The notes beneath the pieces were generated by a model. It was not told the origin of the DNA, did no database searches, and was given only the letters and a program-made list of their open reading frames with translations. A stretch of DNA of 64,000 nt from assembly GCA_000004695.1 (NCBI GenBank), contig CM000154.2, positions 4,448,001 through 4,512,000 of the forward strand. The letters are read 5' to 3'. The stretch is from Dictyostelium discoideum. Lineage: Eukaryota. The stretch's first letter is position 1, and every line of letters begins with the position of its first letter. Below, piece by piece: positions 854 through 34,268 of the stretch. The position numbers and the translations under genes were made by a program.

Positions 854-3800
854 TTAGTTACTGTTACTATTAATATTATTTAAAATGATTGATTCATTAA
901 TTTCCCAATCTTGATGATTATATGAACCAATTGAAATTAATAATTCTTTTGTGCTATTTGACATTTTGAATAAACTATTGATTTTAAAAGTTGATATCAA
1001 TAAATTTTGATTATCATGAATGTGGAATGCTGAATATCTTTTTGATGATTTTCCATTTGATTTTGAAACTAATTTAATCCATTCTTGGTAATCGATTTCT
1101 TTGCAATTAAATTTATTTTCTAAAAACTCATAAATTGATTTCATTTCAATTGAATTACCATTTAAACTGTAAATTGAAATTGGTTTTGATTTATTTTGAT
1201 TCCAACTGTTTTCATTGAATATTAAATCAATTGTGGTTTTAGCTATAGTTGTAATTGGAGTTGTGAAAATTGGTTTATGAATATTTGGATAATAACCAAT
1301 CTCTTTTGAAACTTTTAATAAAAGTGATACGAAATCATTTGAATGACCTATACCTGTTATTGGATTTGAGAATATATCTGAATTTATAATAATAATAATA
1401 ATAATAATAATAATAATAATAATAATAATAATAATAATAATAATAATAATAATAATAATAATAATAATAATAATAGTAATAATAATATTAATAATAATAA
1501 TAATAAAATGTTTATTTTATTAGAATCTATAAATTTAATATTAAAGGTTAATCATATATTAAATATTACATACCAGGTGGTCTAATAATGATTGATGGTA
1601 TACCTCTTGATTCTGCTGCGTTTGTTAATAATTTCTCTGAAATAACTTTACATTGAATATATCCAATTGGTGTAGTATAAAAATTTGGTAATATATTTGT
1701 TTCTTCAAATGTTTCTCCATCTTTTAATTGATGATTAATAAATACTGCAATTGATGAAAAATGAACTATTAACTTTTGTGAGCTATTATTTGAAACTGAT
1801 AATTTTATAACTTGATTGATGCTGTCAACATTTACAGTTTTACTTTCTTCATAATTTGATTTTAAATTTAAATCTGCTGCTGAATTTATAATAATATCAC
1901 ATTCATTTGAAAGTTTTAAATAATCTTGTTCAGTCAAACCAAATTTATCTTTTGAGACATCACCAATCATTGGAATGATTTTAATTAATTGATCTTCACT
2001 TATTTGTTTATTGTTATTTTCACTGTTTTCAATATTACTATTTAATTTATCATTTGACATATTACCTGTACGATTGATTATTTTTGTTAATCTTTGATTT
2101 GGTGATTCTTTGTTCATATCTATTAATTGATGTTTTTTTAAATTATTAATAATTACATCGATTGGATTTGTTAATTTTGAATTATTTCTAATTAAACAAT
2201 AAATTTTTGAGATATTGTCCATTTTAATTAATTCTGTTAATAAATATGCACCCAAAAATCCTGTTGAACCTGTTAGGAATATTGATTTATTATTATTATT
2301 ATTTAATATATTTTTAATTGAATATGGTCTTGAAATGATTGATTCATTTAATTTAATTTCATTTTTAATAAATTCATCAAGTGATTGTTGTTCTTTTTTA
2401 ACTAAATTGTTATTATTATTGTTATTTTTGTTTTTGTTATTATTGATATGAGCCGATTTAATAATTTCAATTGATTGATTGATTTTATTATTTTGTAATT
2501 GTTGAATTGTGATAAGATTATGACCTATTTGATTATCGATAAAATTCTTTAATTGTACAATCACTAAGCTATCCATACCATATTGTGTGAGTTGAAGGTC
2601 TTCATTGATTTTAGATTCATCAATTGATAATAATTCACAAATCTTATTTAAAATTGTTGAACGAATAATTTCATTATTATCACCACCATTACCACTAGAA
2701 GAAGATTTGATTTGGCTTAATTTTTTAGAAATATTAATTTGATAATCGAATTTTGTTAGGAAATGATTTGTTAAAGTTGATGGTAAAACTTCAAAATTGA
2801 AATCTGATAAGCAATAGTTAGGATATTGATGTTGATTTTGAATGAATAAATCTAATGAACTAATAACGAGTTGAGGTGAGAATAGTTTTAAAATTGAACT
2901 CTTGAACATTGTTTCAATTGCATTATTACGTGATATGAAACCAGTTGATGATATCGCACCTAAATTAATGGCTAAAGATGGTAATCCAATTGAATGTCTA
3001 TACTTTGATAATGAATCGATAACACTACATGCACTAACATAACAACATTGTTGATCTGATCCAAATATTGAAACTATTGATGATGCCATTATAAATTGTT
3101 TGATATTCCATGAACGATTAATTGATTGATTGTGAAGATTGATTGCTCCAATTGTTTTAGCACCATGTGCATTATTTAAACGATTCATATCAACTTGTTG
3201 AACATCACCAATATCATTCATAAATGCAAAATGAATGATTGAATCAATATTTGTAATATTTTCATTTAATTCTAATTGATTTAATACTTGATTAACTTTA
3301 TTTGAATCTTCAATATCGATTTGATTGAAATGGAATTTAATATTATTATCTTTTTTAAATTTGCTTTGATTGATTAATAATTCTAATTCCCATTTTAATT
3401 TTGATTTTGAAAGTATTATAATATTTTCAATTGAATGGTTTGAATATTTAACCAAATATTTTAATATTTCTAAAACAATACCAGTTTGACCAGTGAGTAA
3501 AATATTTTTACCAATATTTAATTTTGAAATATCATATGAATGTTTCATTATGATTTGATTGTTATTACTTTGATAATTATTATAAACTCTATTAAATTCA
3601 TCTTGATTATGATTAACAATGATTTTACCAATATGTTTTCTTTGATTTATATATTCAATTGCATCTTTAAATTGATTATTTGAATATTCAATGATTGGTA
3701 CACTTAACTCTAATTCATTTGAATTGATCATTTTGATAATTTTCTTTAAATAGCTTTTGATTAATTTGCTTGGGAAATCTACGACTTCTACGTTATTGTA

Positions 3801-33100: not shown

Positions 33101-34268
33101 GATTTTGAAATGTGTGGGTCTATAAATAAAAATTATATGAAAATTAATATATAATCCTTTTTTTTTTTTTTTTTTAAATTTATCACATACCTAATATAAA
33201 ATTAACACCACCAACGATTGAAACATTTGATTTATTTGATTTAATTGAATTATATCCACAATTAATTGCATTTGATGAACTTGAACAGGCTGTATCAATT
33301 GTTAAACTTTCACCTCTATTTTTTTTTAAAAAATAATCACGAAAATAACAATTAGTATTAAAATTATGTTTTTAGTGTGTGCCAAAAAAGATAAATCAAA
33401 AACATACCTAAAATCAAAGCAAAAACCAATTCTATTTGCGATGGAATGAGTTGATGAACCAAAAATATTATTTTGAGTTTCAGATGGTGATTTTTGAAGA
33501 TTACAATAATCAATAGTACTACTACCAATAAATGTACTTGTATTGGTACCACGTAAACTAATTGGATCAATACCACTATCTTCTAATGCTTCCCATACAC
33601 CTGTTTGTTGATTTTATTTAAAAAACATTATTAATAAGTAAATAAATAAATAAATAAAAGAATGTGAAAAAAAAAAAAAAACGAATTAAAATTTGTTCGA
33701 AAAAAAAAAAAAAAAAAAAAAAACGCTGTGGGGTGTTAAAAAAAAAAAAAAAAATAAAAAAATTATTTTTGGCCACTTTCCATTTTTAATAAAATATTAT
33801 AAGTTATCCAAAATCTGTCATTCTGTAAAATTTCTGAATCAAGTAAAACACTAATTTTTTGTGGCAAAGTTCAAAAACACTTAATAAATACATACATTTT
33901 AATAATAATCTTTGTTGTGGATCTATTGAACTGACATTATCATTGCTTGGATTAATTGCAAAAAAAATTGGATCAAATTGTTTCCATTCATCAAGTGGAA
34001 GTAAACCAGCAAACTTTGAAACGATTTCACCATTTAAATAATAATTATCAAACCATCTTTCAAAAGTTGAAACAATTCCATCCAATCCATTCAATAATTC
34101 ATTAAATAATTGATATGGTTTTGAAATTGATTCTTTTAAACTACCACTTGGAAATCTTAAACCAATACCAATAACTGCAACATCACCACTACTACCAGCA
34201 TCATCATCATAATCATTTCTTTCCCTTATTAATTGATCGTAAGTATTATTATCTGTATTTTGAACCAT
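24163..34268 (-). CDS. Highly reducing type I polyketide synthase, copy C (KS-AT-DH-cMT-ER-KR-ACP-R), 7 exons, about 3101 aa
   Basis: Exons: 34268..33896, 33600..33408, 33315..33191, 33119..32640, 32554..32360, 32284..24878, 24695..24163. Same domain motifs and intron positions as copy A. It carries an in-frame (AAT)n expansion encoding a 17-Asn run at 29941..29990 and a longer poly-Asn ACP-R linker. Confidence 0.9.
29941..29993. repeat. Coding (AAT)n microsatellite, poly-Asn insertion in the DH-cMT linker of PKS-C
   Basis: (ATT)17 on the plus strand, translated on the minus strand as NNNNNNNNNNNNNNNNN. The equivalent position has 6 Asn in copy A and 4 in copy B. Confidence 0.85.

Follow-up and report, generated by a model that had tools for sequence, protein, structure and literature searches.

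Interlocus gene conversion is well known from tandemly arranged gene families, among them the primate globin and opsin duplicates, histone arrays and rDNA. For the Dictyostelium polyketide synthases (PKS), Zucko and colleagues reportedly described, in 2007, clusters in which 2-5 genes closely resemble each other, with promoters that are more divergent than the coding sequences. The PKS genes of D. discoideum have been characterized as a lineage-specific expansion (Sucgang et al. 2011, PMC3188802), and the redundancy of the pks genes is an already recognised obstacle (PMC12625978). In the modular PKS clusters of bacteria, conversion homogenises KS domains and recombination reshuffles genes, and the authors of that study explicitly raised the question of whether the PKS clusters of Dictyostelium act likewise (Jenke-Kodama et al. 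2006, PMC1592344). Another relevant case is the tgrB/C allorecognition locus, a further multigene locus, which was analyzed in the same set of genomes that is used here and where structural turnover is seen along with gene fragments and with recombination among paralogues (PMC12745789).

The window analyzed in this study is a stretch of 64,000 nucleotides of Dictyostelium discoideum AX4 (contig CM000154.2, positions 4,448,001 to 4,512,000), which holds the known pks30/pks31 polyketide-synthase array; all positions given below are those of the window. We consider it likely that the locus is an old head-to-tail PKS array, whose copies are kept alike by purifying selection together with recurrent short-tract conversion. 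Spliced models were built for three full-length PKS genes on the minus strand. Copy A (854-10868, minus strand; 7 exons, 6 introns, 3075 aa) is pks30 (DDB_G0290701) and matches XP_635589 / Q54FQ2 exactly, and copy B (12222-20561, minus strand; 6 exons, 2623 aa) is pks31 (DDB_G0290703), with an exact match to XP_635590 / Q54FQ1. Copy C (24163-34268, minus strand; 7 exons and 3101 aa in the gene model) is an intact third gene, which is probably pks32; the AX2 gene calls contain a 3101-aa product at its position, and an exact-sequence look-up of the spliced C protein in the protein collection gave no match. Between B and C, a single-copy cytochrome P450 gene is located on the plus strand (21976-23730; called as a 502-aa p450 in AX2 and ACTFIR), and it served as a marker of synteny and as a control for divergence.

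Based on Pfam, the domain order of pks30 is KS-AT-(DH)-MT-ER-KR-ACP-reductase, in which the terminal reductase corresponds to a NAD_binding_4 match and the DH domain to a weak match under the Pfam cutoff. The same Pfam set was found for pks31 with the reductase as the only exception, as copy B stops just past the ACP domain and carries neither the C-terminal reductase domain nor intron 6. Such domain content fits the iterative type I highly reducing PKS of the Dictyostelium pks family, consisting of one polypeptide with an optional terminal reductase. The array also includes a pseudogene fragment with many stops (copy D, 35048-37526, minus strand), copy E (59516-64000, plus strand, inverted in the AX4 reference), which is intact over 1254 aa and runs past the window end, and copy F, of which the 5' flank and first bases are at 1-296 on the minus strand (aligned to A 10853-11132 at 76%) and the body is left of the window. 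Fragment D, copy E, the F flank and the loss of the reductase in B had been overlooked in the first-pass annotation of this DNA. Look-ups with pks30 and with the open reading frame at 56173-57603 returned nothing on record.

The first-pass annotation described the copies as conserved almost base for base, introns included, with differences mostly in the form of indels in Asn-coding runs. Its description of gene structure agrees with our models: A, B, C and E all have the same intron positions, phases and GT..AG boundaries, and A and C carry an (ATT)n microsatellite at matching places in their last introns, as (ATT)30 plus (ATT)6 in intron 6 of A (1378-1573, minus strand) and as (ATT)32 in intron 6 of C (24696-24877, minus strand). 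The degree of identity, however, had been overstated. The exons are 93-98.5% identical and the copies overall about 95%; for exon 6 the values are 95.8% for A-B, 96.6% for A-C and 95.8% for B-C. The introns reach 90-94% at alignable sites, contain many indels and vary widely in length (178, 180 and 295 nt for intron 1, and 145, 77 and 85 nt for intron 4, in A, B and C, respectively). Point substitutions far exceed indels, with 160-185 amino-acid substitutions and approximately 250-280 nucleotide substitutions in exon 6 for each pair, in comparison to 11-15 indel events per pair, few of which are in Asn runs. For the A/B/C pairs, dS was 0.079-0.092, dN/dS was 0.30-0.41, and protein identity was 93-95%. 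The percent-identity comparison thus places the indel-rich introns markedly below the exons, which are at about 96%, an outcome that, by the first-pass annotation's own standard, favours an older duplication with purifying selection over conversion, and the mismatch of 6-10% in introns is close to the level of synonymous sites, so that introns are not homogenised beyond that level. The agreement between intron divergence and dS shows that the copies are old and have been under purifying selection. These values, along with promoters that are mostly unrelated, would also be compatible with an old duplication maintained by purifying selection alone, with sequence exchange absent, which is weighed below together with the comparison across isolates.

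A very recent tandem duplication, proposed by the first-pass annotation as one reading of the locus, would make the copies alike merely from youth, with conversion unneeded, and it could account for the high overall identity, the same intron positions, and the microsatellite and upstream block common to A and C. To place the duplications in time, AX4 was compared with the isolates ACTFIR (GCA_054859385.1) and ACTFIW (GCA_054859355.1), whose copies are marked ' and '', respectively. Both were assembled from Nanopore data with Illumina polishing and presumably represent CR116C and OT3A, the two diverged isolates of PMC12745789, and the comparison covers three lineages only, in which ACTFIR and ACTFIW are sisters. 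In the gene calls of ACTFIR and ACTFIW, several of the PKS genes appear in more than one piece. AX4 and ACTFIR have the order D-C-P450-B-A-F in common, and ACTFIW follows it too, but without D and with two P450 copies; a full copy F'/F'' is located directly downstream of A'/A'' in ACTFIR and ACTFIW. The 3' truncation point of B, at A-equivalent position ~2406, is common to B, B', B'' and an outgroup gene. The dS to AX4 of single-copy neighbours was 0.103 +/- 0.011 for ACTFIR and 0.111 +/- 0.012 for ACTFIW, and that of the P450 between AX4 and ACTFIR was 0.14; the dS of the strain split is taken from these local single-copy controls, and the text of PMC12745789 gives no genome-wide dS. Since the gene order and the B truncation are common to isolates that are about 10% diverged synonymously, the duplications are old. 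In addition, the neutral divergence between copies is already 8-9%, and divergence is uneven along the genes, with 1.7% in the A/C flank in comparison to about 8% elsewhere, all of which makes a very recent duplication extremely improbable. The PKS of D. cf. discoideum (L011) was considered as an outgroup and rejected, because it is a single PKS in another genomic context, about equally far from all AX4 copies (82-88% at the nucleotide level), and cannot polarise events.

The locus had also been flagged as prone to assembly collapse or mis-joins. An AX2 long-read assembly matched window positions 2217-30561 at 99.98%, differing over these 28.3 kb by a single mismatch and a single gap. Collapse is thereby refuted for the P450, the whole of B, the greater part of A and approximately 63% of C; the match ends before 30562-38666, where the 5' third of C lies together with the copied flank and fragment D. 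A discrepancy in orientation does occur at the first N-gap (38667-38766), where colinearity and orientation break relative to the AX2, ACTFIR and ACTFIW long-read assemblies; the AX4 block is in the opposite orientation to all three, and it lies outside the A-C genes. The AX4 reference block from this gap appears to be mis-oriented or inverted, which bears on whether E joins one continuous head-to-tail array. Copy E is the positional orthologue of ACTFIR G', based on synteny and on its closeness to G' in mid exon 6, with 5.5% difference in comparison to 8-10% between E and other copies. The second N-gap (43236-43335) is trivial: in AX2 it is bridged by 12 bp, and the sequences to its left and right are colinear. 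An aminotransferase segment between the two gaps was considered as a foreign or misplaced sequence, given its higher GC and matches to 2.8-kb Logan contigs only, and was rejected: it is an ordinary conserved dictyostelid gene, and AX2, ACTFIR and ACTFIW all have it in this context.

The case for conversion is based on cross-strain quartets of two copies from each of two isolates, and not on the evidence that the first-pass annotation had offered for it. Informative sites were divided into those supporting within-strain grouping (S), orthology (o), or the third topology, which represents noise (x). The S/o/x counts were 104/51/16 for (A,C|A',C'), with p = 3e-17 for S versus x, 59/85/18 for (A,B|A'',B''), 38/57/14 for (A,B|A',B') and 43/43/12 for (B,C|B',C'). 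A conservative filter, in which columns <=15 nt from gaps were dropped and same-class sites within 30 bp were merged, left 48/21/10, 29/20/10, 24/10/5 and 19/12/1 events for the same four quartets, respectively, with p from 2e-3 to 2e-7. For the more closely related isolate pair, the counts were 13/117/7, with far fewer S sites. The dS values showed the same tendency by a small margin only: within-strain paralogues were at 0.079-0.094 in AX4 and 0.079-0.084 in ACTFIR, positional orthologues at 0.087-0.094 (0.138 for the partial B-B' comparison), cross-strain non-orthologues at 0.100-0.112, and single-copy genes at 0.10-0.11. The homogenisation is weak, the average paralogue dS being only modestly smaller than that of the strain split (A-C 0.079 in comparison to about 0.10-0.11, a difference of approximately 2.5 standard errors). 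Purifying selection on old duplicates without any exchange does not predict paralogue-shared, strain-specific substitutions at 3-7 times the control topology, nor a paralogue dS smaller than the single-copy strain-split dS, nor a pseudogene, D, that tracks B in each strain, and we regard it as quite unlikely.

The arrangement of the informative sites along the genes provides further information. Gap-guarded runs tests on the mosaic gave p from <1e-4 to 0.0135. Merging removed the run signal, and a distance-decay analysis was used instead, in which the concordance of neighbouring informative sites was 0.86 at <=30 bp, 0.63 at 31-100 bp, and at chance level beyond; after sites within 30 bp had been merged, no long-range tract structure past ~100 bp was found, and individual tracts are not delimitable. 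A runs test on triplets from the window only was also significant and was not relied on, as the signal came partly from dense ~30-bp patches in low-complexity or indel regions. Some of the dense site clusters coincide with low-complexity or indel-prone sequence and could have arisen through misalignment. The excess of within-strain sites in patches of less than ~100 bp points to short-tract ectopic gene conversion and not to recent duplication. A duplication burst just before the isolate split, giving a star-like history, combined with homoplasy in a 77% A+T genome, would agree with the narrow cloud of all pairwise dS values (0.07-0.14) and with a strong A/T mutation bias that favours parallel changes. 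Homoplasy, however, should raise S and x equally, whereas S and o both exceed x severalfold, and the spatial correlation of informative sites at <100 bp and an A/C flank far younger than the rest also speak against such a burst, which we consider very unlikely.

We also examined whether technical artefacts, such as chimeric or cross-polished paralogues, could mimic conversion. The Nanopore assemblies with Illumina polishing (PMC12745789), the splitting of PKS genes in the gene calls and the gaps near the array in the AX4 reference would all be in line with such an explanation. On the other hand, the independent AX2 long-read assembly agrees with AX4 at 99.98%, copy differences of 4-5% suffice for unique placement of short reads, and changes such as the flank replacement and the deletions concern structure and not single bases; artefacts are thus a very improbable source of the overall pattern. 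At the level of single sites, cross-paralogue polishing could yield some spurious within-strain identity in ACTFIR and ACTFIW.

In non-coding sequence, homogenisation was found in the A/C 5' flank only (98.3%), where it came about through structural replacement. The donor-type block upstream of A (10869-11644, minus strand) corresponds to an A-type flank upstream of C (34269-35047, minus strand). The first-pass annotation had reported a 780-bp identical block; a shared block of 776 bp was indeed found, but its two versions differ by 13 mismatches and 6 indels in an alignment of 767 nt. The block is limited to A and C, and the promoter region of B is unrelated past approximately the first 180 bp upstream. 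The AX4 A flank is 83-85% identical to the orthologous A' and A'' flanks, and the AX4 C flank aligns to these same A'/A'' flanks at 84-86%. No alignment was obtained between the AX4 C flank and the C'/C'' flanks. The latter two share 90% identity, and nothing in the AX4 window corresponds to them. Where the A-type flank meets the coding sequence of D, the junction is sharp and breakpoint-like (...CAATTAATTAATAAC on one side and AGGGACTATTTT on the other). In the AX4 lineage, the flank of C was recently replaced by one of A type, with its breakpoint-like junction inside D, and we infer from divergence levels, rather than from an outgroup, that the copying went from A to C.

Pseudogene fragment D has an exon 1 truncated at its 5' end, a deletion of intron 4-exon 5-intron 5, and a 3' end cut at A-equivalent position 7499, where it adjoins the A-type flank. 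It is nearest to B (97%), and D groups with B in AX4 as D' does with B' in ACTFIR (quartet sites S 25, o 2, x 0).

An old array kept alike by selection and conversion could be maintained as follows. Purifying selection on the proteins (dN/dS 0.3-0.4) would hold the copies about 95% alike, while short-tract non-allelic conversion would spread new substitutions between paralogues and wipe out paralogue-specific differences in patches of tens to ~100 bp. Occasional larger rearrangements are superimposed on this process: B', B'', D and D' carry internal deletions, one isolate has a duplicated P450, and in the AX4/AX2 lineage a 0.78-kb copy of the A flank has replaced the original 5' flank of C and the 3' part of D. 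The molecular mechanism would presumably be DSB repair templated by a paralogue. Of the 'ongoing gene conversion' proposed in the first-pass annotation, conversion itself is supported by the quartets, and it presumably continues to the present day.

The similarity of clustered Dictyostelium PKS genes was formerly read as recent expansion, while our analysis shows an array older than the isolate split to which conversion gives a young look. Because conversion makes the array look young, duplication dating or orthologue assignment by similarity only will mislead, and studies of pks30-33 by knock-out, expression analysis or proteomics must handle patches that are identical between paralogues. It is also conceivable, although we consider it unlikely, that conversion, with fragments like D as donors, is a selected 'biocombinatorial' reshuffling of catalytic-domain variants and more than a by-product that homogenises the copies. 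If so, different D. discoideum lineages would make different polyketides, the A-type promoter now on C would change how a diverged enzyme is expressed, and the process would have a parallel in immunoglobulin or surface-antigen genes, which are diversified from pseudogene templates.

The mechanism by which selection and conversion keep an old array alike is not new; it is the textbook behaviour of tandem families and ordinary biology. The PKS array resembles other conversion-driven families in its head-to-tail paralogues, lineage-specific substitutions common to paralogues, mosaic patches, pseudogene fragments that take part in exchange, and rearrangements by unequal exchange. It differs from the near-identity of rDNA and histone arrays in that homogenisation is weak and fine-grained, with paralogues about 8% apart at neutral sites, and from the classic conversion families in general in that its units are very large (~10 kb, encoding 3000-aa enzymes) and its promoters mostly unhomogenised. 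The earlier genome descriptions of Dictyostelium PKS clusters concern the same genes, pks30 and pks31, and clustered similar copies with mostly divergent promoters were again observed here; the flank shared by A and C is an exception to the divergent-promoter rule of these clusters. As far as we found, those descriptions attribute the pattern to recent species-specific expansion, whereas the array described here predates the isolate split, and conversion has partly homogenised it. In the bacterial case, the exchanging units are modules within multimodular assembly lines, while here whole iterative eukaryotic PKS genes swap short tracts. Finally, the tgr locus diversifies and includes large swaps that do not align, in contrast to the PKS array, which remains colinear and whose copies are kept alike.

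Self-alignment of the window, which has a G+C content of 23% and contains two gaps of 100 N (38667-38766 and 43236-43335), yielded five large related segments against the three of the first-pass annotation. These are PKS copies A (about 827-10925, with 5' flank out to 11644), B (12216-20620) and C (24147-34325, with flank out to 35048), all on the minus strand, a partial copy D (35048-37528), and an inverted copy E (59456-63981, running past the window end), and the long alignments between them showed pairwise identities of 88% to 97%. A sixth copy, F, abuts the left window edge, because positions 1-296 are similar to the 5' flank of A. 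B and C are separated by a single-copy cytochrome P450 gene on the plus strand (21976-23730).

The model for copy A has seven exons and six short A+T-rich GT..AG introns of phases 1, 2, 1, 1, 1 and 1, and encodes 3075 aa. Projection of this model onto the other copies showed that intron positions and phases are shared by B and C, as had been claimed, and also by E. The earlier gene coordinates of 854-10868, 12222-20561 and 24163-34268 were likewise correct according to the gene models and to exact protein look-up, by which A and B are pks30 (DDB_G0290701, Q54FQ2) and pks31 (DDB_G0290703, Q54FQ1) of D. discoideum AX4, the reference strain. Copy B encodes 2623 aa with its stop at 12222, the exact end of homology, copy C is intact (3101 aa), and copy E reads open for at least 1254 aa; in copy D, which breaks off at A-equivalent position 7499, the start of exon 1 is missing, the stretch from intron 4 to intron 5 has been deleted, and stops are numerous. 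Pfam domains KS, AT, weak DH, MT, ER, KR and ACP were found in pks30 and pks31 alike, and a terminal NAD_binding_4 reductase only in the former. The Asn/Lys-rich tail of pks31 directly follows the ACP domain, with no reductase domain, and ends at window 12222. The alignment of a lone PKS from D. cf. discoideum (ACTFIY; L011 10001-17622) also stops, as for B, at A-equivalent ~2406; the genomic surroundings of this gene differ, an integrase-like gene lying about 8 kb upstream, and the reductase-less form may be an old variant.

The results showed that the copies are less similar than the "almost base-for-base" conservation first described. Identity between copies was 93% to 98.5% for exons, and exon 6 was 95.8% (277/6555 mismatches), 96.6% (249/7335) and 95.8% (272/6543) identical for A-B, A-C and B-C, respectively. 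For the same pairs, dS by the Nei-Gojobori method was 0.092, 0.079 and 0.085, dN was 0.032, 0.023 and 0.035, and dN/dS was 0.35, 0.30 and 0.41. The A, B and C proteins are 93% to 95% identical, and each pair differs by 160 to 185 amino-acid substitutions in comparison to 11 to 15 indel events, few of them in Asn runs, so the differences are not almost entirely indels. Nor are the introns near-identical: realigned per pair, they are 90% to 94% identical at alignable sites and rich in indels, with a mismatch of 6% to 10%, on par with dS, and lengths in A, B, C and E of 178, 180, 295 and 305 nt for intron 1 and 145, 77, 85 and 143 nt for intron 4. For A and C, the (ATT)n microsatellite reported in the last intron was confirmed, as (ATT)30 plus 6 and (ATT)32, respectively. 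In intron 4 (9201-9345 in A, 61161-61303 in E), an (AAT)n microsatellite is expanded to about 10 units in A and about 22 in E and is nearly absent from B and C; the intronic microsatellites of the array are copy-specific and unstable rather than conserved.

For comparison across strains, we used two isolates labelled D. discoideum from the long-read set of PMC12745789, in which CR116C and OT3A are genetically diverged from AX4 and still able to make macrocysts with it. With primes for copies in ACTFIR (GCA_054859385.1) and double primes for those in ACTFIW (GCA_054859355.1), both Nanopore plus Illumina assemblies in which sequencing errors may account for some of the split gene calls, the order is G'-D'-C'-P450-B'-A'-F' and G''-C''-P450-P450-B''-A''-F'', where G' is the positional orthologue of E. 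B' (L001 4697-9015) and B'' (L003 1617-8972) end where B does, at A-equivalent ~2406, each with its own, different large internal deletion. The same array and the same end of B in diverged isolates show that the duplications are older than the lineage split, thus refuting "very recent duplication". The array is structurally polymorphic: D and D' (L002 8240-12520) are fragments with different deletions, and ACTFIW has no D and two P450 genes. Five gene calls make up C'' (L013 18616-23697), a split that may stem from real frameshifts or from Nanopore errors.

The split was calibrated with exons of the single-copy aminotransferase, O-methyltransferase and GlcNAc-phosphotransferase genes, giving dS from AX4 of 0.103 +/- 0.011 for ACTFIR and 0.111 +/- 0.012 for ACTFIW; P450 dS was 0.14, and orthologous intergenic flanks were only 83% to 85% identical. 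Since the paralogues are older than the split, their dS would be expected to exceed the single-copy values without exchange. Contrary to this expectation it did not, although the differences are modest: dS was 0.079 to 0.094 within AX4 and 0.079 to 0.084 within ACTFIR, in comparison to 0.087 to 0.094 for positional orthologues (A-A', A-A'', C-C') and 0.100 to 0.112 for cross-strain non-orthologues.

The sharpest evidence for exchange is the site pattern in quartets, where sites support within-strain grouping (S), orthology (o) or the third topology (x, a homoplasy control). An S site is a lineage-specific substitution in two paralogues and was therefore copied from one to the other. The S, o and x counts were 104, 51 and 16 for (A,C | A',C'), with a binomial p of 3e-17 for S versus x; 59, 85 and 18 for (A,B | A'',B''); 38, 57 and 14 for (A,B | A',B'); 43, 43 and 12 for (B,C | B',C'); and 13, 117 and 7 for (A',B' | A'',B'') between the two closer isolates. 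MAFFT alignments are imperfect on A+T-rich, low-complexity DNA. Because some dense patches fall in low-complexity or indel regions, we repeated the counts without any column lying 15 nt or less from a gap and with same-class sites no more than 30 bp apart merged, which left 48/21/10, 29/20/10, 24/10/5 and 19/12/1 for the first four quartets, respectively; the excess of S over x persisted (p from 2e-3 to 2e-7). Under the gap guard by itself, runs tests showed clustering of S and o sites (p between <1e-4 and 0.0135), and neighbouring informative sites were concordant at 0.86 within 30 bp, 0.63 at 31-100 bp and by chance beyond, indicating a fine-grained mosaic with tracts or surviving remnants of tens to about 100 bp, at a resolution that stops short of individual tracts and donors. 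In both AX4 and ACTFIR the pseudogene fragment falls together with its own strain's B copy (D with B, D' with B'; S 25, o 2, x 0), and thus fragments also join the exchange.

The most similar feature among the copies is the upstream block of A and C (10869-11644 versus 34269-35047), which exists as first noted and is not identical, with 98.3% identity over 776 bp (13 mismatches, 6 indels) and 95.5% over the whole BLAST alignment, which extends into exon 1. B has only the first ~180 bp upstream in common with these flanks, at about 84% identity. The AX4 C flank aligns to A-type flanks in each of the three strains (84.5% to that of A' and 86% to that of A''), and shares almost nothing with that of C', its positional orthologue; the C' and C'' flanks are 90% identical over 707 nt, and no counterpart of either was found in the AX4 window. 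Block divergence is 1.7% between A and C and about 15% between A and its own orthologous flanks, so the flank was copied recently and only in the AX4/AX2 lineage, A being the likely donor. Exon 1 beside the block is already 4.6% diverged, and the recent event was therefore limited mainly to the flank. The distal edge is abrupt, the D coding sequence ...CAATTAATTAATAAC being joined directly to AGGGACTATTTT..., and looks like a breakpoint junction rather than the end of a conversion tract within homology; the same event also deleted the 3' portion of D, which D' retains.

The array had been suspected of assembly collapse or mis-joins. In a chromosome-level long-read assembly (GCA_054883475.1, prefix ACTFIT, evidently the AX2-214 of PMC12745789), pks30 and pks31 are each identical to their AX4 counterparts, and window 30561 down to 2217 (AX2 4,614,082 to 4,642,421) matches with one mismatch and one gap in 28.3 kb. 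This match reaches A, B, P450 and 63% of C and stops before 30562-38666, where D, the copied flank and the remaining third of C lie; the covered part is thus not collapsed or mis-joined. The second N-gap is trivial (12 bp in AX2, colinear on both sides). At the first, the orientations disagree: AX2 is colinear from window 52982 down to 38767 (38767 to 52982 being AX2 4,550,219 to 4,564,262) and then continues into about 7.5 kb that the window lacks. The 38767-64000 and A-D blocks have opposite relative orientations in AX2 and the AX4 reference. The continuation past the O-methyltransferase gene, with genes of 364 aa and ~779 aa, is common to AX2, ACTFIR and ACTFIW and absent from the window, and in ACTFIR the E-like G' shares its strand with D' and lies immediately upstream of it. 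The conflict would reflect either a real AX4 inversion of ~56 kb or a contig of the 2005 reference mis-oriented at this gap, and mis-orientation appears more likely. In AX2, ACTFIR and ACTFIW, E/G' runs head-to-tail into the array. By coordinate arithmetic, E start to D start is ~36 kb in AX2 versus ~11 kb for G'-D' in ACTFIR; AX2/AX4 thus probably carries ~25 kb extra between E and D, possibly further PKS copies (CM142511.1 ~4,575,000-4,606,000 in AX2, outside the window).

The segment between the N-gaps, 39859-45000, has a higher G+C of about 31% and encodes an O-methyltransferase, a class-III aminotransferase and a GlcNAc-1-phosphate transferase, all apparently ordinary, conserved genes. 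As annotated, the aminotransferase has 494 aa; it is 77% to 89% identical across dictyostelids and 52% to 55% identical to bacterial taurine-2-oxoglutarate-type transaminases. Since the annotated product is longer, the exact 416-aa ORF occurred nowhere but on 2.8-kb Logan contigs. Between D and the first N-gap, the 1.1 kb upstream of the pseudogene (37528-38666) matched neither the ACTFIR array region nor AX2 locus L012; it holds a 144-aa ORF (37778-38212).

In general, across the three lineages compared, the analysis supports conversion among the PKS copies in which short tracts weakly homogenise old, selectively constrained paralogues, rather than near-complete concerted evolution. The proposed "ongoing gene conversion" is thus supported by the quartets only in this limited form. 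Exons are clearly better conserved than introns, a pattern set beforehand as evidence for older duplication rather than conversion, yet conversion occurs, and that either/or was too simple.

Zucko et al. 2007 reportedly described clusters of very similar Dictyostelium PKS genes and a lineage-specific expansion. Such clusters and expansion are also described in PMC3188802, and pks genes are redundant among themselves (PMC12625978). In bacterial PKS clusters, gene conversion and recombination are described, and the Dictyostelium case was posed as an open question (PMC1592344). Our literature search found no paper testing conversion in Dictyostelium PKS arrays. The genes were already annotated and, since ectopic gene conversion is textbook biology for tandem families, conversion in this array is a newly documented case of a familiar process.
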